Shown in pieces: positions 6,923 to 47,857 of a stretch of 64,000 nt of DNA; position 1 is the first letter of the stretch, and every line of letters begins with the position of its first letter. The position numbers were made by a program, and so were the translations under genes. The DNA lies in the NCBI GenBank assembly GCA_037129535.1, contig JBAXUT010000003.1, positions 7,037-71,036 on the forward strand. Reading direction: 5' to 3'. The notes below the pieces were generated by a model. The model was not told the DNA's origin and searched no databases. It saw only the letters and a program-made list of their open reading frames with translations. This DNA is from Candidatus Saccharimonadota bacterium (lineage in GTDB: Bacteria; Patescibacteriota; Saccharimonadia; Saccharimonadales; Saccharimonadaceae).

Positions 6923-7402
6923 ATGGAAGTAATTCTAATATGTATTGCTATGGCCACCGCCCTTTTTGTGGCAGCATTTTTGACGAAACGTAGGTTCGGC
7001 TTACTGGGGTTGGCACTAGCTGCTGGATCAATATTGAGTAGTGTTTGGGGTGATGATTTGGGTATGGTTGCTAGTGGTCTTGGTATACCGCAAGGGCCAA
7101 TGACATCTGCGATTGTGCTGGCAGCGATTATAATGTTACCTCCATTCGTGCTGTTATTCCACGGATATACATATAAAAATCATCTAGCACGGATTGCTGG
7201 AGCTATAATGTTTACCATACTGGCATTGGCGTTTTTAATTGAGCCTCTGGGTCATATATTAGTTCTAACTGGAACGGGCGCAGATGTTTATAATTGGCTC
7301 GTTGATAACCGTACATTAATTATTGGTGCAGGGTTAATATTAGCTGTATTTGATTTGTTTTTGACCAAACCAGTTCACAAGCTGGAAAAGAAAAAACATT
7401 GA
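6923..7402 (+). CDS. small integral membrane protein (4-5 TM helices)
   Basis: Hydrophobic throughout. ATG 6923 preferred to GTG 6917 because of the -10 box position. Confidence 0.6.
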   Translation: MEVILICIAMATALFVAAFLTKRRFGLLGLALAAGSILSSVWGDDLGMVASGLGIPQGPMTSAIVLAAIIMLPPFVLLFHGYTYKNHLARIAGAIMFTILALAFLIEPLGHILVLTGTGADVYNWLVDNRTLIIGAGLILAVFDLFLTKPVHKLEKKKH

Positions 7403-7438
7403 CGAATCACCCCTAGTAATGTATATTATTTAAGATAT

Positions 7439-7515
7439 GAGGTCGTAGCTCAGTTGGTTAGAGCGCCTGCCTTTTAAGCAGGATGTCGTGAGTTCAAGTC
7501 TCACCGACCTCACCA
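7439..7515 (+). tRNA. tRNA-Lys (anticodon UUU), CCA encoded
   Basis: Cloverleaf folded by hand: acceptor GAGGTCG/CGACCTC, anticodon arm CCTGC-CTTTTAA-GCAGG, T arm GTGAG-TTCAAGT-CTCAC; 77 nt. Confidence 0.95.
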
Positions 7516-7552
7516 AAATAAAATACCTATCGGCTGATAGGTATTTTATTTT
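7516..7552 (+). terminator. A-tract/hairpin/T-tract (bidirectional-type) terminator
   Basis: AAAATAAAATACCTATC-GGCT-GATAGGTATTTTATTTT. Confidence 0.7.
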
Positions 7553-7554
7553 GG

Positions 7555-7720
7555 TGAAACCCTGTTGGGGTTTGGACTCACGACTTTTTGCGGAGCAAAA
7601 ATAGTCGTGAGGTCGCGTAATGCAGCGAAATAAAAATATGTTTACATGTTTTTATGAGCAAATGGAGGAGTGGAGATTTATCTCAAGATAAATCGGAGCG
7701 ATAGTTCTCACCGACCTCAC
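7555..7720 (+). repeat. tRNA-linked structured element, copy E1
   Basis: Hairpin H1 spans 7574-7614. The conserved core contains an 11-bp hairpin (7630-7655, loop TTTA) followed by GGAGGAG (7664-7670). The element ends in TCTCACCGACCTCAC (7706-7720), which is identical to tRNA positions 7499-7513. Confidence 0.7.
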
Positions 7721-7729
7721 GGGCTTTTT

Positions 7730-7738
7730 TGCTATACT
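7730..7738 (+). promoter_or_regulatory. extended -10 (TGCTATACT) 6 nt before ATG 7745
   Basis: TGnTATACT with no Shine-Dalgarno. Confidence 0.5.
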
Positions 7739-7744
7739 ATACCT

Positions 7745-28874: not shown

Positions 28875-28888
28875 TCCAAGTTATTCAT

Positions 28889-28920
28889 AAAAAATACCAT
28901 TCAGCCGAATGGTATTTTTT
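28889..28920. terminator. bidirectional-type terminator hairpin
   Basis: AAAAAATACCATTC-AGCC-GAATGGTATTTTTT. Confidence 0.6.
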
Positions 28921-28923
28921 ATT

Positions 28924-29134
28924 TGGTCGGGGTGGAAGGATAGCGGCTCCGTCTTCTCCGCTTATTCGCAAAAGAAAATATGGTGGGATGAAAGGACATC
29001 GGCTAAAGCCTCCTCCATTCGTTCGCGGAAATATGTAAACACATTTCCGCTTCGCTCATTTCGCCAAACTTCGACCTACAAATTTTGCCCTGGCAAAATT
29101 TGGGTCGAAGGTTTGAGGCATTTCGCCCCAAGGT
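28924..29134 (-). repeat. tRNA-linked structured element, copy E2
   Basis: The H1 arm is complementary to 15 nt of the tRNA-Pro T arm. The core hairpin is at 29025-29050 and GGAGGAGG (reverse strand) at 29009-29016. The element ends in a 29-nt near-duplicate (28911-28939) of the tRNA-Pro 3' end plus trailer (29162-29190). Confidence 0.65.
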
Positions 29135-29136
29135 CC

Positions 29137-29174
29137 AAATAAAAAAGACTATCCTACGGATGGTCTTTTTTATT
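29137..29174 (-). terminator. terminator hairpin after tRNA-Pro
   Basis: A-tract/hairpin/T-tract: AAATAAAAAAGACCATCC-GTAG-GATAGTCTTTTTTATTT in tRNA orientation. Confidence 0.6.
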
Positions 29175-29250
29175 TGGTCGGGGTGAAAGGACTCAAACCT
29201 TCGACCTCACGGTCCCAAACCGCGCGCGCTATCAACTGCGCCACACCCCG
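29175..29250 (-). tRNA. tRNA-Pro (anticodon UGG), CCA encoded, non-canonical A19/U56
   Basis: Acceptor CGGGGTG/CACCCCG, anticodon arm CGCGG-TTTGGGA-CCGTG, T arm GAAGG-TTTGAGT-CCTTT, D loop AGTTGATA. Confidence 0.9.
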
Positions 29251-34424: not shown

Positions 34425-34472
34425 GTAAATATAATAACAGAAAATAGTTGGTCGTATTCAATACGAAGGGTC

Positions 34473-34512
34473 AAAATAAAAATAACCAACTTTTAGCTGG
34501 TTATTTTTATTT
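34473..34512 (-). terminator. terminator hairpin after tRNA-Arg copy A
   Basis: AAAATAAAAATAACCAGC-TAAAAG-TTGGTTATTTTTATTTT in tRNA orientation. Confidence 0.55.
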
Positions 34513-34588
34513 TGGTACCCCGGGTTGGAATCGGACCAACGACCTTAGGCTTAGAAGTCCTCTGCTCTATCCACTGAGCTACCGGGGC
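34513..34588 (-). tRNA. tRNA-Arg (anticodon UCU), copy A, CCA encoded, non-canonical
   Basis: Acceptor GCCCCGG/CCGGGGT and anticodon loop CTTCTAA. The anticodon stem GAGGA/GCCTA has only three Watson-Crick pairs. The T loop is TCCGATT (C at position 55). The sequence is 100% identical to 37313-37388. Confidence 0.8.
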
Positions 34589-34669
34589 GTATGGTTGAAA
34601 TTGGCCTAGCCCAAGTCCAACAAGTGCTAGGAGCTATTCCTGAAAAGATAGAACCAGTTTAGTCAATAA

Positions 34670-35929
34670 TTAATTTAGTAAACTTTGAATGCTTTTTTCG
34701 ACTATGTCGATGCCACTATTTAAAGTGTCGTCGTCGATTGTTATAGATGGCAAGAATTTCAATACTTCGCCATAGGCGCCAGACGTCTCGATAATTAAAC
34801 CTAGTTCGAATGCTTTTTGAGCTATTGCCTCTGCAAGATCGGGTTGTTTTGCGCTAGCCAACCCATACATTAAACCTCGGCCACGTACTGTGATCTCTGT
34901 ATCTGGGTATTTTTGAGCTATCGCTAATAATCTATCTCGCAGTATAACTTCTTTACGTTTAACTTCTTGCGATAAGCCATCGTCAGTCCAATATTGTTTG
35001 ATAGCGGCAGTCGCCCCGACAAAGGCCAGATTGTTGCCTCGGAATGTTCCGTTATGCGCACCCGGTTTCCATATGTCATATTCTGGTTTTAGCAAAACTA
35101 ATGCCATCGGCAACCCATAGCCAGAAATAGATTTAGATAATGTTACAATATCTGGGTTTATTCCTGATTTCTCGAAACTAAAGAAGTCACCACTTCGTCC
35201 GCAGCCAGATTGGATATCATCAACTATTAACAAGATATCTCGGTCTTTGCAGAGTTTTTCTAGCCCCTGTAGCCATTCGTCGCTGGCTATATTAATGCCG
35301 CCTTCGCCTTGGATAGTCTCAACCAATATCGCCGCTGGTTTGTCTAGCCCGCTGCTAGGGTCATCTATCATTTTTTCAATGACATGAACAGTATCTACGT
35401 TATCGCCTAAATAGCCATCATAGGGCATAAAGGTTACATTTGACAATGGGTAGCCAGCGGCTTTCCTAAATTTTTGATTTGCTGTAGCTGTTAATGCGCC
35501 AGCGCTGACACCATGAAATGCATGCGTAAAAGCTAGGATATTTGTCTGGCCTGTTACTTGTCTGGCTAATTTCATAGCGGCCTCTACGGCGTTCGTTCCA
35601 GTAGGGCCAGTAAACTGTAATTTATAATCTAGATTTCTAGGTTTTAGGATTGATTCGACGAATGCTGTTATAAACTCTTTTTTTGCAACCGTAGCCATGT
35701 CCAGGCTGTGTATAATAGCGTCGGATTGCAGATATTCTATAATGGTAGGCTTAAAAAATTGATTATTATGACCATAGTTTAATGTTCCGGCTCCAGCAAA
35801 AAAATCTATGTAATCTTTACCATTCGTATCTGTCATGATTGAACCGATTGCTTTGTTAAACACTACAGGAAAAGACCTAATATAGCCCCTGACTGCAGAT
35901 TCGTTGTCGTTAAAAATTTTTAAATCCAT
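34670..35929 (-). CDS. class III aminotransferase, diaminobutyrate--2-oxoglutarate transaminase-like (EctB/Dat type)
   Basis: N-terminus ESAVRGYIRSFPVVFNKAIGSIMTDTNGKDYIDFFAGAGTLNYGHNN, DDIQSGCGRSG, and the PLP-Lys region TLSKSISGYG. Confidence 0.8.
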   Translation of the reverse strand: MDLKIFNDNESAVRGYIRSFPVVFNKAIGSIMTDTNGKDYIDFFAGAGTLNYGHNNQFFKPTIIEYLQSDAIIHSLDMATVAKKEFITAFVESILKPRNLDYKLQFTGPTGTNAVEAAMKLARQVTGQTNILAFTHAFHGVSAGALTATANQKFRKAAGYPLSNVTFMPYDGYLGDNVDTVHVIEKMIDDPSSGLDKPAAILVETIQGEGGINIASDEWLQGLEKLCKDRDILLIVDDIQSGCGRSGDFFSFEKSGINPDIVTLSKSISGYGLPMALVLLKPEYDIWKPGAHNGTFRGNNLAFVGATAAIKQYWTDDGLSQEVKRKEVILRDRLLAIAQKYPDTEITVRGRGLMYGLASAKQPDLAEAIAQKAFELGLIIETSGAYGEVLKFLPSITIDDDTLNSGIDIVEKSIQSLLN

Positions 35930-36010
35930 ATAGATATAATAACAGAAAACTTGCTGGGTGAATTAAAAAATACTCCAAGGGCTGTATTTATAGTCGTTTA
36001 TAGGGGGTAT

Positions 36011-36042
36011 AAAAAAGAGGGGTTTTGGCCCCCTCTTTTTTA
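36011..36042 (-). terminator. GC-rich hairpin terminator
   Basis: AAAAAAGAGGGG-TTTTGGC-CCCCTCTTTTTT. Confidence 0.7.
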
Positions 36043-36056
36043 TGTGATCTTTTTAA

Positions 36057-36998
36057 TTAAAATTTGAAGCTCGCGGAGTTTGACAATGAACTCCTTGCGG
36101 TTTTGTAATGTCCAAAAGCATCAAGACCGGCTGTTGAGTCAAATCTTACGGACTGCACTTTCATCGTATACGTTCCACGATCCCAACCAGGGAACCAATT
36201 TGAATTAAATGTGTATGTAAGTTGTCCTGCTGCACCCTTTGTAATACCTGCCAATTGGTTTTGACCAGTTTTGTATAAGTTTATGTAGACACCGTTACCT
36301 GCTTCGCCCCTACATTTGTTGCACCAAACTCTCCAATAATCTGCGCTACCCATTGAGTCTGCTGCTTGGTTGAAGCTAATGGTTACTTCTTTTGTCGATC
36401 CACCTATGCCTGTTATTTTTAGACCAGTTGGTTTTGGTGCCGCCTTTAATTTGGAGGTAGTAATTGTAGTAGTAGCTACATTACCACTGTATATTTTGTT
36501 TTTTATAGCTTCGACTTTAATTTTCAGCTTTGTGTTTAGCGGTATTACTGGTTTTTTATAGTCAAGAATTAACCGCGATCCTACTTCGCGAATTTTAACA
36601 TAACTGTTGTTTGTCTCTAGAGCCACTTGATTTACGATTATATCTCGGACATCAGACGTACACTTATCGCACGTGATGTGATATCCTTCAGCTTCCATTA
36701 TCTCGTTAAACCCAACACTGATTTCTCCAATAGCGATGTTTTTTGCTTTTAAGCCGGTTGGTTTTGGTAATGTAGAAGACGCGCCCAAAACCCCAATGTT
36801 GATGTGAGCAAAGTTCATACTTATAACAGAGACTACACCTGCTACTAATACGAAGACTCCGGCTAATTTAAATTTTAAGCCAGTGTTTTTTTTGCTAACA
36901 GTCCTCTTTAAAATTTTTTTACTGACAGTTTTTTTGACTGTCGGCCGTTTGGCGGCTAGTTTTACGGTTGTTTTTTTGTTTTTCTTTGCCGTTGCCAT
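36057..36998 (-). CDS. membrane-anchored surface protein with two Ig/FN3-like modules
   Basis: Lys-rich N-terminus, one TM helix, and two modules each starting PKPTGLK. GAGGG Shine-Dalgarno upstream. Confidence 0.5.
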   Translation of the reverse strand: MATAKKNKKTTVKLAAKRPTVKKTVSKKILKRTVSKKNTGLKFKLAGVFVLVAGVVSVISMNFAHINIGVLGASSTLPKPTGLKAKNIAIGEISVGFNEIMEAEGYHITCDKCTSDVRDIIVNQVALETNNSYVKIREVGSRLILDYKKPVIPLNTKLKIKVEAIKNKIYSGNVATTTITTSKLKAAPKPTGLKITGIGGSTKEVTISFNQAADSMGSADYWRVWCNKCRGEAGNGVYINLYKTGQNQLAGITKGAAGQLTYTFNSNWFPGWDRGTYTMKVQSVRFDSTAGLDAFGHYKTARSSLSNSASFKF

Positions 36999-37140
36999 TT
37001 TGGTGCCCTCTTTCTTTGTTGTGCAACTAAATTATAACTAATGCTATAATAACAACACTATTTTTGTGTTGCAAGTAATTTGGTTATGATTAAGCTGGTA
37101 TTATCTTTTGCTGTGGATAACTTTAGATTATAACAGGGTG

Positions 37141-37272
37141 TATATAATATGGTTGGAAGTCTGCAAGCATCCTCCGCTCATTCGCTAAAAAATGTAAACA
37201 CTTCTTAGATTCAATCGCTGCGCCGTCCCAACGACTATTTTTGTTTCGCAAAAAGTCCTTGACTCAACTCCA
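37141..37272 (-). repeat. tRNA-linked structured element, copy E3
   Basis: GTCGTTGG copy of the tRNA-Arg T-stem region, core hairpin at 37175-37198 (loop TTTA), GCGGAGGATG, and a terminal TTCCAACC equal to the tRNA T-stem 3' strand. Confidence 0.6.
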
Positions 37273-37274
37273 CT

Positions 37275-37312
37275 TGGAGGGACCAAAAAAATAAGCCAAG
37301 ATATAATCCTGG
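37275..37312 (-). terminator. terminator hairpin after tRNA-Arg copy B
   Basis: AAAAAAATAAGCCAGG-ATTATATC-TTGGCTTATTTTTTT in tRNA orientation. Confidence 0.55.
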
Positions 37313-37388
37313 CTTATTTTTTTGGTACCCCGGGTTGGAATCGGACCAACGACCTTAGGCTTAGAAGTCCTCTGCTCTATCCACTGAG
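37313..37388 (-). tRNA. tRNA-Arg (anticodon UCU), copy B
   Basis: Identical to copy A over 79 bp; plausible own promoter (TATAAT about 17 nt upstream on the reverse strand). Confidence 0.8.
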
Positions 37389-37469
37389 CTACCGGGGCAC
37401 AGTGCACCGTGTCCATTATACCAAATTATAGATGTAATTGGTGCTCCCCGTCTGTAGACTAATTTTTTT

Positions 37470-38658: not shown

Positions 38659-38736
38659 GGCGAATGTAGCTCATCTGGTTAGAGCGCCGGGTTGTGGTTC
38701 CGGAGGTAGCGGGTTCGATTCCCGTCATTCGCCCCA
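38659..38736 (+). tRNA. tRNA-His (anticodon GUG) with genome-encoded G-1, CCA encoded
   Basis: G-1 lies opposite C73; acceptor GCGAATG/CATTCGC; anticodon loop TTGTGGT. Confidence 0.93.
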
Positions 38737-38770
38737 AAATAAAATAAGGTCTTTCGGGCCTTATTTTATA
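38737..38770 (+). terminator. terminator hairpin after the tRNA-Gly/tRNA-His pair
   Basis: AAAATAAAATAAGGTC-TTTCG-GGCCTTATTTTAT. Confidence 0.6.
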
Positions 38771-38777
38771 TTTATAG

Positions 38778-38783
38778 TATAAT
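38778..38783 (+). promoter_or_regulatory. -10 box (TATAAT) 6 nt before ATG 38790
   Basis: No Shine-Dalgarno. Confidence 0.4.
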
Positions 38784-44374: not shown

Positions 44375-44418
44375 ATTATTAGCATAAGGTTTTTGGGGTA
44401 AAATCGCAAGCTTAGGGG

Positions 44419-45441
44419 CTAGACTATCTCTAGTGGTTCTTGTTCGATTTGGATATCGAATTCATCATAAATCTTTTTGGTGATTTCGTCGCGTGCCGCC
44501 GCTAGGTCGCCATAGGAATTAGCGGATTCATTGACTAATACTAGTGCGTTTTTATCATATATACGCATACCGTGGAATATTTTCCCTTTTAGGCCAGCGT
44601 TTTCTATCAGCCATCCAGTTGGGATTTTATAATTACCGTCAGGCATTGCAAAACTAGGTGCGTCTGGGTCAATAGCCCGCAATTCGTCTAGTTGTTTTTG
44701 GCTGACGATTGCGTTTTTGAAAAAAGAACCACTGTTGGCCAGGATATTTGGGTCTGGTAATTTAGATTCGCGAATTTTCAAAACAGCGTTACGAATGATT
44801 TGCGGGTCATAAGATGTGATGCTATTGGTATCTAGATATTTTTGTAATGAATCGTAGAACGGCGCAGTTGGCCTAGATTTGGACAATTTCAAATTTATAT
44901 ATGTAACTATATATCGGCCGATGGACTCCCCGCGGAATATGCTGTGGCGATAGGCGAATTTACAATCAGTGTTCTGCAATGTGATGAATTGATCGGTTTG
45001 GGTATCATAGGCCTCTAATGATTGTAATGTATTGGCTATTTCTTGGCCGTAGGCGCCTATATTCTGTATTGGTGCTGCGCCGGTAGTGCCAGGGATTCCT
45101 GACATCGCCTCGATACCAGTCAGGCTCATATCTACTGTTTGTTTGACTACCGAATCCCAATTCTCTCCAGCGCCGATTTTAACAATAGTTGAATTGTCGT
45201 CGTCATAGATTATTTCAAAACCAGGGATACCGATGTGGATTATAATCCCATTAAAACCTTCGTCATGGGCAATTAGATTACTGCCACCACCGATAACGAA
45301 TATTGGTAGGTTTTGAGATTTGGCGTTTTTGCAAATTGTTGCCACGTCAGTAGGAGTTAATATTTCGGCCATAAATCGGGCGTTGCCGCCAATACGCATA
45401 GTCGTGTAATCTTTTAGTGGAATATTTGTTTTGATTTCCAT
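44419..45441 (-). CDS. murB: UDP-N-acetylenolpyruvoylglucosamine reductase MurB
   Basis: PLKDYTTMRIGGNARF, GGGSNL FAD-binding motif, C-terminal MurB domain. Confidence 0.9.
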   Translation of the reverse strand: MEIKTNIPLKDYTTMRIGGNARFMAEILTPTDVATICKNAKSQNLPIFVIGGGSNLIAHDEGFNGIIIHIGIPGFEIIYDDDNSTIVKIGAGENWDSVVKQTVDMSLTGIEAMSGIPGTTGAAPIQNIGAYGQEIANTLQSLEAYDTQTDQFITLQNTDCKFAYRHSIFRGESIGRYIVTYINLKLSKSRPTAPFYDSLQKYLDTNSITSYDPQIIRNAVLKIRESKLPDPNILANSGSFFKNAIVSQKQLDELRAIDPDAPSFAMPDGNYKIPTGWLIENAGLKGKIFHGMRIYDKNALVLVNESANSYGDLAAARDEITKKIYDEFDIQIEQEPLEIV

Positions 45442-45588
45442 ACATAAACATTATAACATTTAAGTCGCGAGTAGATTTTAGTATAAATTTCAGAATCTCC
45501 TTGCAAATGAAACCTTTATTGTATAATATACTTTTTCATTGGTTGTAATAACAGTGGTAAAGATATATAATCAATAAGTTAATTTAAT

Positions 45589-45665
45589 GCACCCGTAGCT
45601 CAGTGGATTAGAGCATCTGTCTTCGGAACAGAGGGTCGGCGGTTCGAGTCCGTCCGGGTGTACCA
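45589..45665 (+). tRNA. tRNA-Arg (anticodon UCG), CCA encoded
   Basis: Acceptor GCACCCG/CGGGTGT, anticodon arm TCTGT-CTTCGGA-ACAGA, T loop TTCGAGT. Confidence 0.93.
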
Positions 45666-45751
45666 ATATAATGAACAAACCTTAATTTGTGAGGTTTATT
45701 TTTTTGCTTATGCTTGCTTTTTACTAGGGTCAGTATCATAGTTATGACATT

Positions 45752-46105
45752 ATGGAGCATACGGAGAAAAATGCAGTAGAGACATTGTCTGATGGCAAAT
45801 ACCACCGAGTTGTTGAATATGACGAAGAGACGGGCAAATGTTGCTTTGTGGTAGATGGTGAAGACAATATACTTGGCGATGAACTGGATTATCCAGATGA
45901 ATCAACACAGATAGATTGTTTGGAGATAGAGGTTTTTATGGATGGGGTAGGTGAAGAGATAGGCTATCGTGACAAAGGTATCAGTCGGTCGCTAGGCAGA
46001 GCGGCTCTTTGTGTGCTAAACCACAAAAACCAGTTTGTCAGATTGCCGATAAGCTTGGTTAAAACAGACAAAGTATCGTATATTCGCGGCGAAGATACAG
46101 AATAA
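45752..46105 (+). CDS. hypothetical acidic protein (117 aa)
   Basis: ORF only. Confidence 0.4.
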   Translation: MEHTEKNAVETLSDGKYHRVVEYDEETGKCCFVVDGEDNILGDELDYPDESTQIDCLEIEVFMDGVGEEIGYRDKGISRSLGRAALCVLNHKNQFVRLPISLVKTDKVSYIRGEDTE

Positions 46106-46120
46106 TACGTCGCTTGATTG

Positions 46121-46603
46121 CTAATATCTAAAAATGTCGATGCCTGTGAGCCGTTCTATATCGGATTTTGCTTGTATAAACTCGTTTGAAGATTTGTCAT
46201 AGAATGACTTTGTTGTGCCATTTATGGTCACGGTTATTTCAGTTCCGCCATACGTTGCGCCCTTGTTAGAGTTAGAGCTCATCAGCCCAGATTTTATGAA
46301 AGATTCGCGCAATTCTTTAATTTTTTCGGGGATTGTTGCAAGTAGAGTTTTTGTGGGTGTCGTTTCATAATCCGAGCTAGATATATGATACACTTGGCCG
46401 CTAGCATTGATAGTATATGTATCTGTCGCGCCTGTAAATCCACCCCCAATCATAGGCTCTATTCCGACATTGAATGTTGGATCTGAGATTTTAGCTGTGC
46501 CGTTGCCAAGGACCATACTTATCCCAACCACAGTCCCAATAGAAGTCAAAATGAACAACCCGATAGATAATATGATTGCTGGGATTGTTTTATGTTTTTT
46601 CAC
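46121..46603 (-). CDS. hypothetical membrane-anchored protein (160 aa, GTG start)
   Basis: N-terminal TM helix; ORF only. Confidence 0.45.
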   Translation of the reverse strand: MKKHKTIPAIILSIGLFILTSIGTVVGISMVLGNGTAKISDPTFNVGIEPMIGGGFTGATDTYTINASGQVYHISSSDYETTPTKTLLATIPEKIKELRESFIKSGLMSSNSNKGATYGGTEITVTINGTTKSFYDKSSNEFIQAKSDIERLTGIDIFRY

Positions 46604-46719
46604 TGTAGCTATATTATACCATTTATGATTATTTGGGTAGTTATGTGCGGGTATTAACTGCAGCTTATCCTTGCTTGCACCAACAGGGGTAATGGTGTAT
46701 ACTTTGTCGGTAAATACAT

Positions 46720-46796
46720 GGGCCAGTAACTCAGCTGGTTAGAGTGTCTGCCTCTTAAGCAGAATGTCGTGGGTTCAAGTCCCACCTGGCCCTCCA
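46720..46796 (+). tRNA. tRNA-Lys (anticodon CUU), CCA encoded
   Basis: Acceptor GGGCCAG/CTGGCCC, anticodon arm TCTGC-CTCTTAA-GCAGA, T arm GTGGG-TTCAAGT-CCCAC. Confidence 0.95.
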
Positions 46797-46833
46797 AATT
46801 AAAAATCAGACCTGTTGGTCTGGTTTTTAATTT
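46797..46833 (+). terminator. terminator hairpin after tRNA-Lys(CUU)
   Basis: AAATTAAAAATCAGACC-TGTT-GGTCTGGTTTTTAATTT. Confidence 0.65.
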
Positions 46834-46835
46834 GG

Positions 46836-46978
46836 AAGCGACCAGCTGTGGCTCGAAACCATGACTCACGCTGAAAGCGTGATAGTCGTGGGTCGCGAAG
46901 TGCAGCGAAATAAAAATGTGTTTACATATTTTTATGAACAAACGGAGGAGCGGAACAAAGTGGAGCGATAGTCTCACC
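46836..46978 (+). repeat. tRNA-linked structured element, copy E4
   Basis: The core from about 46896 to 46953 is roughly 90% identical by eye to E1. The hairpin is at 46910-46935 and GGAGGAG at 46944-46950. The element ends in GGAGCGATAGTCTCACC. Confidence 0.7.
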
Positions 46979-47037
46979 TAATCTATCAATACACTAATAT
47001 TTTATCGTGACCAAGTCCCATTTATCATTAATATTAT

Positions 47038-47832
47038 TTAGATAATCCCGACCAAAACTAAAACTGCCAAAACGCCAGCCAAACCGATTCGATACCAACC
47101 GAAAGCTTTCAAACCATTAGTTGAGATAAATTTGATAAAGAAGCTAACGGCTAATATTCCAGCCACGAATGAGGCAATATTACCAACCAATACAATCGCC
47201 ATATTATTGCTGGCAAATTCTAACCCCCCGTCCAACAAAGTCTTGAAACTGGCACCAGCAATTATCGGTATTGCCAATAAAAAGCTAAACTCGGCAGCAC
47301 GGGCAGCGGACAAATTCGAACGCAATCCAGCCAGAATTGTAATGCCAGAACGAGAAGTCCCAGGGATGAAAGCTAACGCCTGCGCAATACCAATCGCAGC
47401 AGTTGCGCGCCAACCGACAGATTTCTCAATCTCACGATTATCTGCCGTCTTTTTCTCCCGGCCTACCAATATCATCGGGATGCCAATAATAACTAACATT
47501 GCAATAACAACCCAAATCATACCATTCAACCATTCAATTTGAGATTTTAATAATACGCCAAGCGCAACGGCTGGAATTGTAGCTAATATAACTTTGGCTA
47601 GTAACTTCCATTCCGAGCCCTTGAAAATCCTAACGATAATAGACCAAATTCGTTTGCGATAAAAGATAACCAGCGCCAACAATGTGCCTAGATTTAACAA
47701 AACATCAAAAGTAAACGCACTACCAATACCCAAAAGGTGACTAGTAATAACTAGGTGACCAGAACTGCTGATAGGGATAAATTCCGTCACTCCCTGGACC
47801 AAACCTAATACTATTGCATCGATAATAGACAT
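47038..47832 (-). CDS. uppP: undecaprenyl-diphosphate phosphatase UppP/BacA
   Basis: QGVTEFIPISSSGHL N-terminal motif, PGTSRSG motif, 8 TM helices. Confidence 0.9.
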   Translation of the reverse strand: MSIIDAIVLGLVQGVTEFIPISSSGHLVITSHLLGIGSAFTFDVLLNLGTLLALVIFYRKRIWSIIVRIFKGSEWKLLAKVILATIPAVALGVLLKSQIEWLNGMIWVVIAMLVIIGIPMILVGREKKTADNREIEKSVGWRATAAIGIAQALAFIPGTSRSGITILAGLRSNLSAARAAEFSFLLAIPIIAGASFKTLLDGGLEFASNNMAIVLVGNIASFVAGILAVSFFIKFISTNGLKAFGWYRIGLAGVLAVLVLVGII

Positions 47833-47857
47833 TGATACTATTTTAGCAGATCTTAAA

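Follow-up and report, generated by a model that had tools for sequence, protein, structure and literature searches.

Several kinds of mobile DNA, among them tyrosine-integrase phages, ICEs, islands and their protein-less derivatives, CIMEs, insert into tRNA genes, often in the T-loop, and restore the gene by means of a 3′ part that they carry. The original 3′ fragment is left as a direct repeat, and successive insertions can pile up in tandem, the newest by the tRNA. There is ample documentation of tRNA fragments that stem from such integrations (PMC9897764; PMC1762012; PMC3293823). A full-text search of the literature returned only background of this kind, on integration-derived tRNA fragments, and no description of the units reported here. 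Saccharibacteria and other CPR bacteria have tiny genomes and are thought to be poor in mobile elements.

In each of these respects, tRNA-targeting elements resemble units that we describe from a 64-kb stretch of Saccharibacteria DNA (the window, meaning the whole stretch analysed), half of whose tRNA genes bear a conserved, structured and protein-less unit. The units appear to represent a type of tRNA-targeting insertion element that has not been described before. We propose tentatively, at a probability of about 0.45, that the four copies in the window, E1 to E4, are putative non-autonomous, protein-less, site-specific insertion units in tRNA T-loops that regenerate the tRNA.

Results

Organisation of the units in the window

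ARAGORN located eight tRNA genes and no tmRNA in the window. Four of the genes are followed by a unit (Lys-UUU, Pro-UGG, Arg-UCU copy B and Lys-CUU), and each core lies 122-133 nt downstream of its own tRNA, on the same strand. A preliminary description of this DNA had reported one layout behind these four genes; all the parts that it listed are present, and there are exactly four cores. Its tRNA coordinates were right for Lys-UUU, Pro-UGG and Lys-CUU, and Arg-UCU copy B lies at 37323-37398, not 37313-37388. The unit is about 200-250 nt long and non-coding, with no ORF in it, and runs in the order tRNA, terminator (term1), inverted copy of the tRNA 3′ half (anti), hairpin (ext), sense copy (s5), core and displaced original tRNA 3′ end (s3).

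7399-7427, sigma-70-like promoter of tRNA-Lys-UUU
7439-7515, + strand, tRNA-Lys-UUU, host of E1 (ARAGORN; Rfam tRNA, 77 bits)
7516-7551, + strand, E1 term1, palindromic A-tract/hairpin/T-tract terminator, which pairs with CCA too
7552-7584, + strand, E1 anti, the tRNA 3′ half inverted (TGG, then complements of acceptor, T-arm and variable loop)
7552-7611, + strand, E1 hairpin H1 as a whole
7585-7603, + strand, E1 ext hairpin TTTTTGC-GGA-GCAAAAA, tip of H1
7604-7611, + strand, E1 s5, sense variable loop and T-stem 5′ strand (GTCGTGAG), 3′ arm of H1
7612-7670, + strand, E1 conserved core (covariance model R1, 72.2 bits; covariation)
7671-7702, + strand, E1 variable hairpin, whose 3′ end GCGAT is the right edge of the insertion
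7703-7720, + strand, E1 s3, displaced T-loop 3′ bases, T-stem 3′ strand and acceptor 3′ strand
28981-29250, - strand, unit E2 including tRNA-Pro-UGG (29175-29250); core 78.6 bits
29138-29174, 29103-29137 and 29077-29102, - strand, E2 term1, anti and ext
29069-29076, 29010-29068, 28998-29009 and 28981-28997, - strand, E2 s5, core, variable hairpin and s3
37151-37398, - strand, unit E3 including tRNA-Arg-UCU copy B (37323-37398); core 70.2 bits
37286-37322, 37255-37285 and 37236-37254, - strand, E3 term1, anti and ext
37228-37235, 37169-37227, 37160-37168 and 37151-37159, - strand, E3 s5, core, variable hairpin and truncated s3
46720-46979, + strand, unit E4 including tRNA-Lys-CUU (46720-46796); core 74.7 bits
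46797-46832, 46833-46865 and 46866-46884, + strand, E4 term1, anti and ext
46885-46892, 46893-46950, 46951-46969 and 46970-46979, + strand, E4 s5, core, variable hairpin and truncated s3

The s5, anti and s3 parts each match the tRNA of their own unit. Anti opens with TGG, the complement of CCA, right after the T-tract of the terminator, and in no case includes the complement of the core. The preliminary description had named a "5′ arm of H1" with reverse complements of 9 nt and 15 nt to the tRNA; the arm exists and both complements are correct, but it belongs to a longer inverted copy of the entire tRNA 3′ half, and in E1 it is formed by the 3′ part of anti. The distal copy of the tRNA's own 3′ strands, claimed for all four units, is long in E1, where TCTCACCGACCTCAC at 7706-7720 is identical (15/15) to 7499-7513 of tRNA-Lys-UUU, and in E2 (16/17), but only 8-10 nt long in E3 and E4. 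In every copy inspected the core divides the distal tRNA fragment within its T-loop, and most copies are without any tRNA 5′ half at the interrupted fragment; two loci elsewhere, L015 and L035, are core-only insertions within full-length pseudo-tRNAs. The image of a tRNA 3′ half with about 100 nt in its T-loop was accurate but incomplete, as 1-4 T-loop bases are replaced at the insertion, with no exact duplication, and the insertion is therefore not a clean intron.

The conserved core

The core pattern TGTTTACAT-N8-GA-N3-A-N2-GGAGGA, with three mismatches allowed, has exactly four matches in the window, compared with 0.03 expected from shuffles. With filters off, the covariance model likewise returned exactly these four copies, at 70-79 bits, and at most about 14 bits on the reverse strand. 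On the tRNA-sense strand, and on that strand only, the core folds into an irregular hairpin made of three helices with GA-rich internal loops between them, an apical loop TTTA and a 3′ GGAGGAG; the hairpin arms quoted in the preliminary description were correct. It is under structural constraint, with strong covariation: 94.6% of cells are paired, double changes occur at 11 of 15 pairs, none of 500 shuffles reached this level, and slid controls gave 31-71%. The tRNA-sense strand folds better in 50 of 50 units, the core is equally intact with or without a decayed distal flank, and a compensatory change from C-G to U-A separates the core of E4 from that of its orthologue in a relative (L089).

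The edges of the core, TTCGG... and ...GCGAT, resemble the two halves of a T-loop. The TCG at the left edge is derived from the element and not from the tRNA, since GTCG persists there even where the T-loop of the tRNA is TTCA.... Core similarity is 0.86 within a genome and 0.79 between genomes, and the internal variable hairpins nonetheless differ, which speaks against recent copy-and-paste of whole units.

Distribution and a second family

In GTDB species genomes there are about 62 true matches to the core, nearly all in Saccharibacteria. Members of this family (A) are present in dozens of Saccharibacteria species, where they follow tRNAs of at least 13 isotypes. The listed matches with a same-strand tRNA no more than 260 nt upstream number 54, including a degenerate copy (L021) that was left out of the true matches; among these 54 are 50 single units, which lie 89-133 nt downstream of a tRNA of 13 isotypes. 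A covariance model of the A core gave 86 matches, compact in form wherever inspected. Every unit adjoining a tRNA has the orientation of that tRNA. The displaced 3′ end extends to CCA in 23 of the 50 units, mostly with another terminator, and in these the distal tRNA copy typically has 18-21 identical bases. Further copies and strong covariation had been looked to by the preliminary description as a check on its proposal, and both were found.

The same layout surrounds a second core, unrelated to that of A. This family B has at least 119 metagenomic matches, compact where inspected, with no match in Rfam; 51 cases lie behind a tRNA and 46 are mirror-image cases in front of one, where the unit replaces the 5′ part of the tRNA. 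Insertion is in the D, anticodon or T loop. About half of the mirror-image cases have an inverted copy spanning the insertion site, on the side of the live tRNA, and the remaining ones have short matches only. In L134 and L020, cargo genes lie between units.

Filled sites, empty sites and arrays

Close relatives, with BacA identities of 92-93%, differ in the occupancy of orthologous tRNA loci, a comparison that the preliminary description had also proposed. tRNA-Arg-UCG is empty in the window genome and filled in L004 and L090; tRNA-Lys-CUU is filled in the window genome and in L089, and empty in L090. In arrays the newest unit adjoins the tRNA and the older units show decay. L089 has, in order, the tRNA, an A unit, a perfect 3′ end with terminator and an older B unit, and in the window both E2 and E4 carry older remnants on their distal side. 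The B unit of which a remnant lies behind E4 is present in complete form in L089 and L046. A further tRNA locus of the window, Arg-UCU copy A, has no core and is a partial or decayed unit.

28887-28969, - strand, older layer of E2 as a whole
28940-28969, - strand, 3′ remnant of an earlier core
28924-28939, - strand, second tRNA-Pro 3′ end with CCA
28887-28923, - strand, terminator belonging to the second 3′ end
34447-34588, - strand, coreless locus of tRNA-Arg-UCU copy A (tRNA 34513-34588, terminator 34474-34512, inverted-copy remnant 34447-34473)
45589-45665, + strand, tRNA-Arg-UCG, empty site
47000-47020, + strand, older family-B remnant behind E4
47000-47012, + strand, 3′ end of B, TTTTATCGTGACC
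47013-47020, + strand, AAGTCCCA, T-loop 3′ bases and T-stem 3′ strand of tRNA-Lys-CUU

Near the tRNA loci for Arg and Lys, genes are arranged differently in a close relative. An aminotransferase gene resembling those of Betaproteobacteria lies behind tRNA-Arg-UCU.

Searches for known families, parents and enzymes

The preliminary description had not recognised a described RNA family, and the scan with Rfam 15 agrees: at the gathering threshold only the tRNAs of the window pass, and between 7400 and 7800, at E up to 10, the tRNAs are joined only by spurious matches of the terminator palindrome to miRNA hairpins. A free, circular, phage or plasmid form did not turn up. In IMG/VR, exact and relaxed core patterns and a B pattern gave only chance matches in coding regions or GC-rich DNA, and blastn recovered no A or B core from PLSDB plasmids or INPHARED phages, so that an origin from known phages or plasmids was rejected.

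The ORFs flanking E1-E4 are housekeeping genes, with no mobility gene among the ten scanned, and the genes downstream of units are mutually unrelated. No recombinase, transposase or reverse transcriptase lies beside a unit at any copy examined, and no Y1/HUH transposase or RAYT was seen among the ORFs scanned in the window and in 8-kb loci. Xer-like integrases occur in two related loci (L091 and L092), with no functional link to the units.

A number of other identities were discarded. The units are not tRNA introns, as spliced L015 and L035 give no valid tRNA and the flanks do not restore the loop. The preliminary description's decoy or tRNA mimic is unsupported, because no acceptor-like closing helix is maintained; a tRNA-like molecule in which s3 and the 5′ part of anti would make up the acceptor stem fails as this pairing is not kept, and a T-stem formed by s5 and s3 fails on uncompensated changes in L001, L006 and L047. 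GGAGGAG is not the ribosome-binding site of a small ORF (no conserved start codon or frame follows), and TGTTTACAT is neither a promoter, lacking a -10 box at proper spacing, nor a DNA-uptake signal, with just four copies in 64 kb. An omega-RNA or bridge-RNA guide was rejected because there is no linked nuclease or recombinase and the putative guides pair with each other; for TnpB/IscB omega-RNA there is no adjacent ORF and no HEARO or omega-RNA match in Rfam, and a guide equal to s3 would be expected to self-target the intact tRNA 200 nt upstream. The ext hairpin is not a copy of the anticodon arm, as the sequences differ and ext is common to different tRNAs. A MITE does not fit either: only TCG(GC)/(GC)CGA at the core edges can pair, and there is no target-site duplication of fixed length.

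Discussion

In the reading that we favour, the unit would bring a substitute tRNA 3′ end, covering about position 58 to CCA, and a terminator to go with it, then anti, an uninterrupted tRNA sequence in inverted form that spans the insertion site, then ext as a small capping hairpin, the sense copy s5 and the structured core, whose edges would mimic the T-loop halves. After insertion the resident 5′ part of the tRNA would read into the 3′ end of the unit, so that the tRNA gene remains intact, and the original 3′ end with its CCA and terminator would be displaced behind the core. We infer that the unit moves as a whole, that anti pairs with both flanks of the core, so that a duplex resembling the target forms and the core is looped out, and that a recombinase encoded elsewhere acts on it; repeated excision and re-integration would account for a displaced 3′ end that is often perfect.

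The preliminary description had offered, as one of three options, miniature or decayed integrative elements that target T loops and leave att-like duplications. A miniature integrative element is the best of the three, given the filled and empty sites, the arrays with the newest unit by the tRNA and the displaced 3′ end that often has CCA and a terminator. "Decayed" does not fit, since the core is structurally constrained and no larger parent was found. The tRNA-derived s5, anti and s3, the specificity for tRNA genes, the structure of the core, the layout common to families A and B, the cargo genes of L134 and L020 and the compensatory change between E4 and its orthologue also count in favour of the insertion reading. 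Where s3 matches the tRNA at 21/21 bases, about 10-25% of the aligned positions of anti differ from the tRNA, for the most part those in the acceptor and T-stem section; as anti is already diverged while s3 is perfect, it seems older than the junction, and on this sequence comparison it probably arrives with the unit.

Some results weigh against this reading, among them the absence of an enzyme gene beside the copies examined and of a free form in the collections searched. Pairing of anti with s3 would be expected, yet it is not maintained in resident copies, where on average about 6 of 10 pairs are kept and 133 one-sided breaks occur; in H1, where anti pairs with s5, 18 double changes are seen and about 9-10 of 12 pairs persist. 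The acquisition of flanks specific for at least 13 tRNAs is not explained by the model. From anti to core, E4 and its L089 orthologue are about 94% identical and their term1 hairpins are unrelated, which a simple move of the whole unit does not predict. Moreover, covariation, G-U pairs and fixed co-orientation are equally expected of a transcribed functional RNA.

Such an RNA, which we regard as unlikely, would consist of the core and H1 and be of use to the host while riding on tRNA transcription units. Its source would be read-through of a leaky terminator or, in mirror-image B cases, the 5′ leader, and it could bind protein through the GA-rich internal loops and the GGAGGAG strand; the tRNA-derived flanks would be leftovers of its gene origin, with H1 preventing them from mispairing with the tRNA precursor. 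The covariation, the conserved G-U pairs, the fold restricted to the sense strand, the compensatory change between orthologous copies, the co-orientation of all tRNA-adjoining units and cores intact irrespective of distal-flank decay are all in keeping with this, and in some B cases there is no room for a promoter at the real tRNA, so that B must be transcribed as its leader. However, no promoter was found between tRNA-Lys-UUU and E1, and a strong-looking terminator lies ahead of every unit. Occupancy varies among relatives and among tRNAs (four of eight here, with Arg-UCU copy A coreless), older array units decay and the downstream genes have nothing in common. Finally, the same flanks surround two unrelated cores, which points to an insertion process rather than to one RNA function.

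It is also doubtful that, in Saccharibacteria and other CPR bacteria, a hitherto unseen system of self-guided gene capture uses A and B units as its attachment modules. A folded single-stranded DNA module would carry a "splint" complementary to the D, anticodon or T loop, an enzyme encoded elsewhere would integrate it, and the tRNA would be regenerated with the terminator or promoter of the module. Cargo genes may come along, with tRNA genes serving as integron-like platforms, and homogenisation within H1 would adapt the splint once the module has jumped to a new tRNA.

Mobility of the core alone (about 85-100 nt) seems rather improbable. The core would be a miniature single-stranded DNA transposon of IS200/IS605, PATE or REPIN type, with its HUH enzyme encoded elsewhere, inserting into the loops of hairpins that the DNA of tRNA genes forms, and the intact tRNA with its inverted and direct partial copies would be a product of repair or of replication template-switching. 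The top-strand-specific structure with G-T pairs would suit such a transposon, as would GC-GNA-GC mini-hairpins in ext and the variable hairpin, which are very stable in DNA. The entry of family B into any of three tRNA hairpin loops, and cores that are alike within a genome while their flanks are tRNA-specific, are also consistent with it. The core-only insertions in L015 and L035 point the same way, but are alternatively explained by deletion between two direct copies of s5. Against it, no Y1/HUH transposase was seen among the scanned ORFs, and there is no consistent orientation to the replication strand, two window units lying on each strand under uniform GC skew. The terminators and promoters by the rebuilt tRNA often bear no relation to those displaced, and so are not simple duplications of them; ext is conserved across tRNAs in spite of its position outside the core; and accidental rescue would not give a sense-antisense-sense layout as regular as the one repeated at more than 100 independent loci.

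Still more improbable is a route through RNA, in which a core RNA would be joined into the loops of tRNA transcripts by a ribozyme, or by a nuclease and ligase, and reverse-transcribed, with snap-back priming yielding the inverted copies and the cDNA recombining beside the tRNA gene. The targets are exactly the three single-stranded loops of a folded tRNA, always in sense orientation; self-primed copying of a terminated pre-tRNA would place TGG directly after the T-tract, as observed; and the junctions are hairpin turns, as is typical of snap-back synthesis. However, no reverse transcriptase was seen near any unit, Rfam gave no ribozyme family match, the complement of the core is absent from the inverted copy, ext is conserved and not random, and the displaced 3′ end leads into genomic terminators and flanks and not into cDNA ends. 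Inert scars, that is, fused attL/attR arms of since-deleted phages or integrative elements, are very improbable: in length the unit comes close to a lambda-type attP (roughly 240 bp), a second tRNA 3′ end is present, as in classical att sites, and there are the cargo of L134 and L020 and the Betaproteobacteria-like gene behind tRNA-Arg-UCU, but neither core occurs in IMG/VR, INPHARED or PLSDB, the 86 A-model matches and 119 B stretches are compact where inspected with no integrase-bearing parent, the core is structurally constrained and not decaying, and a classical attR would have an uninterrupted T-loop.

If the units are mobile, they would represent a new mode of harmless invasion of essential genes, in which the broken part is replaced and an inverted copy of the target is kept, and they would mark hot spots of gene gain and rearrangement, of which the aminotransferase gene and the altered gene order around the Arg and Lys tRNAs may be examples. 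If they are RNAs, they would form two new, widespread and strongly covarying classes tied to tRNA expression. On either reading the units confound the annotation of tRNAs and pseudo-tRNAs, a covariance model is ready for a census, and the testable question arises of an enzyme that recognises tRNA hairpin loops.

Compared with known tRNA-targeting elements, the units are small (about 200 nt), with no integrase gene and no parent found; precisely at the junction a conserved structured core breaks up the displaced fragment, and the unit itself contains the target in inverted form. Family B differs further in its use of D and anticodon loops and in its upstream position, where it replaces the tRNA 5′ part. 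Integron attC sites and the attP(+) of CTX phage, used by XerCD, are alike in that structure on one strand counts rather than sequence (in the units 11 of 15 pairs covary, on the sense strand only), and in being small and non-autonomous with an enzyme encoded elsewhere, as may be the case for the units; the gene cassettes between integron sites recall L134 and L020. Their inverted segments mimic a duplex target with an unpaired centre, a likeness that the units may share in part, with the anti/s5 pairing kept and about 6 of 10 pairs for anti/s3. In contrast, no IntI or Xer is linked to the units, the target is a tRNA hairpin loop and not attI or dif, the flanks copy the particular tRNA, and the core is conserved in sequence (GGAGGAG, GA-rich loops).

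PATEs derived from IS200/IS605 and REPINs are similarly non-coding, hairpin-forming, strand-specific and multi-copy, about 100 nt long and found beside terminators, but the units have no TnpA or RAYT partner among the scanned ORFs, and they show exact tRNA-loop specificity, direct and inverted flanks derived from the target and a regenerated gene end. Introns of tRNA genes (group I in anticodon loops; archaeal bulge-helix-bulge introns, also in the T-loop) are structured sense insertions in a tRNA loop as well; in the units, however, the interrupted copy is a fragment or decayed pseudogene alongside an intact tRNA, the joined flanks are without 1-4 loop bases and the core is far below group I size. 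With tRNA-like RNAs, such as the tmRNA domain and viral tRNA-like structures, the units share T-stem and acceptor 3′ sequences and sometimes CCA, and they differ in keeping no acceptor 5′ strand or closing helix and in matching neither tmRNA nor any Rfam family of this kind.

tRNA genes and core copies in the window

ARAGORN places eight tRNA genes in the window. The core motif TGTTTACAT-N8-GA-N3-A-N2-GGAGGA occurs there four times, and still four times when three mismatches are permitted, against 0.03 copies by chance in shuffles, which bears out the four tRNA-linked copies claimed in the preliminary description. All four cores lie 122-133 nt 3' of a same-strand tRNA. Every sequence string quoted earlier was correct on re-check; the coordinates then given for tRNA-Arg-UCU copy B were 10 too low and are corrected here.

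Host tRNA genes of units E1-E4 (ARAGORN)
7439-7515, + strand, tRNA-Lys-UUU, host of E1
29175-29250, - strand, tRNA-Pro-UGG, host of E2
37323-37398, - strand, tRNA-Arg-UCU copy B, host of E3
46720-46796, + strand, tRNA-Lys-CUU, host of E4

Only a terminator stands behind tRNA-His and behind tRNA-Arg-UCG, tRNA-Gly-UCC has tRNA-His as its immediate downstream neighbour, and tRNA-Arg-UCU copy A carries a terminator and a remnant of an inverted copy, without a core.

Anatomy and constraint of the units

Read in tRNA orientation, a unit consists of the tRNA including CCA; term1, a palindromic terminator (A-tract, hairpin, T-tract); anti, the inverted 3' half of the tRNA, with TGG at its start and best kept across the T-loop, T-stem 5' strand and variable loop; ext, a small hairpin cap, frequently TTTTGC-GNA-GCAAAA; s5, which repeats the variable loop and T-stem 5' strand in sense orientation; the core; a variable hairpin with a GCGAT end; and s3, which joins the final 2-3 T-loop bases to the 3' strands of the T-stem and acceptor. 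Of 50 units, 23 have an s3 that extends to CCA, and a second terminator, unlike term1, usually comes next. Since tRNAs with a TTCA T-loop still have GTCG at the left edge of the core, the TCG there is the element's own, which means that 1-4 loop bases have given way to the core and that the insertion is not a clean one.

The tRNA terminators of this genome are long palindromes of A-tract, stem and T-tract (for example 7513-7556, 38733-38780 and 34470-34515). After the T-tract there is often a GG or TGG, which can pair with the encoded CCA, so that the tRNA 3' end would be sequestered in the precursor. Mini-hairpins of the form GC-GNA-GC, such as GCGAAGC, are unusually stable as DNA hairpins, and they recur in ext and in the variable hairpins (window 7590-7598; loci L028, L053 and L063 from other genomes or metagenomes).

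In an alignment of 67 copies, the core of the E1-E4 type (family A) forms three helices of 2, 2 and 11 bp, with GA-rich internal loops between them and the purine-rich strands GCGUAG and GGAGGAG on the flanks. Core pairing holds in 94.6% of the alignment cells, compared with 31-71% in slid controls, and 11 of the 15 pairs show two-sided changes; one pair is G-U in 64 of the 67 copies, with scattered U-G pairs at other positions. The covariation score was 0.44 versus 0.22 in shuffles, and none of 500 shuffles reached it. The tRNA-sense strand folds better in all 50 units (-12.1 vs -6.0 kcal/mol), and the family-A covariance model scores the window cores at 70-79 bits forward and about 14 bits in reverse. 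On the tRNA-sense strand, the core is under structural constraint. H1, the hairpin of anti with s5, is also maintained, at about 9-10 of 12 pairs. Between anti and s3 no such maintenance is seen: about 6 of 10 pairs hold, and 133 one-sided breaks occur.

Some subfamilies of family A have another apical stem-loop and lack TGTTTACAT. Their internal loops are still GA-rich and GGAGGAG is usually present, so the invariant loop marks a subfamily rather than all of family A.

Family-A subfamily copies (locus, positions)
L021, 4847-4911
L013, 7838-7902
L043, 207-270 and 4320-4383
L074, 2449-2510
L036, 6645-6701
L216, 380-480

Distribution of the two core families

One scan of GTDB species genomes returned 84 stretches, about 62 of them true family-A members, essentially all from Saccharibacteria/Saccharimonadales or from unclassified or probably mis-binned MAGs. 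Among the matches listed, 54 lie no more than 260 nt downstream of a tRNA on the same strand, a count that includes the L021 copy, which is degenerate, fails the hairpin test and is outside the 62. Fifty of these are single units, 89-133 nt 3' of the tRNA, and four are in tandem arrays. The hosts cover 13 isotypes (Ser, Arg, Lys, Tyr, Met, Gln, Leu, Asp, Ala, Glu, Asn, Phe and Pro). With the covariance model, 86 matches were found across 70 loci, at most three per 8 kb, some being subfamilies with a different apical loop. No Rfam family matched the family-A units, in agreement with the earlier statement that they belong to no described RNA family; no true copy was found in the viral contigs, phages and plasmids searched, and no description in the literature searched. 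The units are thus undescribed in these sources.

Some contigs with typical units (L020, L042 and others) are labelled as Bacteroidales or Acidobacteriota MAGs and are probably mis-binned Saccharibacteria contigs. Family-A cores also occur within full-length, decayed pseudo-tRNAs (L015 1950-2150; L035, minus strand, near 234-292), one Gln-like with anticodon TTA and one Met/Ile-like; in both, the tRNA, terminator and inverted copy that normally precede the core are missing.

A second, unrelated core (family B), of the form GAGAACNGCC...GGCNGTTCGCAAGG ... CGGGGTCGCGGAA ... GTGACC and likewise without a match in Rfam, occupies the same position in several loci (L035, L080, L010, L046, L054, L082 and L089). 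A metagenome scan yielded at least 119 family-B stretches (L097-L215); among the matches listed, at least 51 follow their tRNA, as family-A units do, and at least 46 are mirror images (L060 5228-5395; L121, L117, L150, L141 and others). In the mirror-image order, a pseudo-copy of the 5' part of the tRNA leads into B and a short flank in sense orientation; an inverted copy across the insertion site comes next, and the complete tRNA last. That the inverted copy extends across the site is clear in about half of the mirror cases listed, the rest having short matches only. The pseudo-copy stops in the D-loop, anticodon loop or T-loop, with 1-3 loop bases absent. Some mirror cases leave no space for a promoter directly in front of the real tRNA, so that its leader transcript must include B.

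One rule is thus common to the two unrelated cores. The core is in a hairpin loop of a partial tRNA copy, which is truncated on the side toward the live tRNA; at the truncated side, the short flank usually forms a hairpin with an inverted copy of the target in its uninterrupted form; and the live tRNA carries its own terminator or promoter.

Gain, loss and relative age

Filled and empty sites were compared in three genomes (the window, L089 and L090; 92-93% BacA identity). The tRNA-Arg-UCG site is empty in the window and filled, with the same downstream flank, in L090 and L004, and the tRNA-Lys-CUU site is filled in the window and L089 and empty in L090, which is evidence that units come and go. 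The window and L089 Lys-CUU loci are identical upstream of and across the tRNA, and about 94% identical from anti to core, where one of the differences is a compensatory C-G to U-A change; with term1 hairpins and variable hairpins that are unrelated, these loci are mosaics.

In arrays, the newest unit adjoins the tRNA. L089 reads tRNA, A unit, a perfect 3' end with terminator and then an older unit of the other family; in E2 the remains of an earlier core persist, together with a second tRNA 3' end and its terminator, and a family-B remnant (47000-47020) lies behind E4. Where s3 still matches the tRNA at 21/21 positions, anti has already diverged from the tRNA at about 10-25% of the positions aligned, chiefly across its acceptor and T-stem part. 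Anti thus seems older than the junction and probably comes in with the unit. Comparison of the Lys-UUU unit in the window with its orthologue in L009 shows s3 tracking the lineage-specific acceptor variant (CGACCTC vs CGGCCTC).

Gene order and orientation around Arg-UCG and Lys-CUU differ between the window (44400-47850) and L089 (2700-7500; 93% BacA identity), suggesting an inversion, and the tRNA-Arg-TCG gene exists in another version in L089. The rearrangement breakpoints may be the tRNA loci that bear units.

Small genes for a GNAT acetyltransferase, a zinc-ribbon-like protein and a membrane protein lie in L134 (11200-13300) and L020 (140-2700) between units bearing only about 9 nt of tRNA 3' end, an arrangement that looks like a cassette array. 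A transposase-like HTH protein adjoins the L134 array. At 34513-37398 in the window, two tRNA-Arg-UCU genes of identical sequence bracket 2.7 kb encoding a 313-aa protein and a diaminobutyrate-2-oxoglutarate transaminase. Setting aside two Saccharibacteria copies and a few unnamed matches at 66-75%, the nearest named relatives of the transaminase are from Bordetella and other Alcaligenaceae (62-65% identity), and it is therefore probably acquired cargo. The relative L216 has a different gene set behind the same tRNA, and a gene that L216 has in intact form is mostly replaced by copy A in the window.

Discussion

The feature is real, widespread and structurally constrained. We favour, with a probability of roughly 0.45, its reading as a non-autonomous insertion module that regenerates its tRNA. 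The simplest account of the observed layout would be an inserted unit composed of a replacement tRNA part and expression signal, followed by anti, ext, a short flank and the core, and joined to the target inside a tRNA loop. Drawn as a circle, such a unit would allow anti to pair with both core flanks; we infer that the paired segments would mimic the target duplex and leave the core as a loop at the crossover point. Repeated excision and re-integration could make the two 3' ends alternate in function, and s3 would then often be perfect, with CCA and terminator, yet decayed at other loci. One possibility for the specificity for many tRNAs is mismatch correction in H1 after a jump, aided by the near-universal T-loop sequence. 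An enzyme, a circle and a parent element for the units were looked for and not found.

That the units are instead transcribed functional RNAs seems unlikely; the constraint on the tRNA-sense strand speaks for this reading, and a search for E1's own promoter, which found none, speaks against it. Somewhat less likely still is a single-strand transposon of the core only, with repair afterwards; in its favour, the recurrence of GC-GNA-GC may point to single-stranded DNA as the relevant folded form. Insertion at the RNA level followed by retro-integration is improbable, and inert att scars, set against so constrained a structure, are very improbable.

Of the three options in the preliminary description, that of miniature integrative elements fits best; full membership of a known family is not supported, as these units did not fully pass the defining tests of any known family considered. 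Nearest to the insertion module in working are tRNA-targeting integrative elements and integron cassette sites, and integron attC sites and the CTX-phage attachment hairpin have the same geometry as the proposed fold of anti and core.
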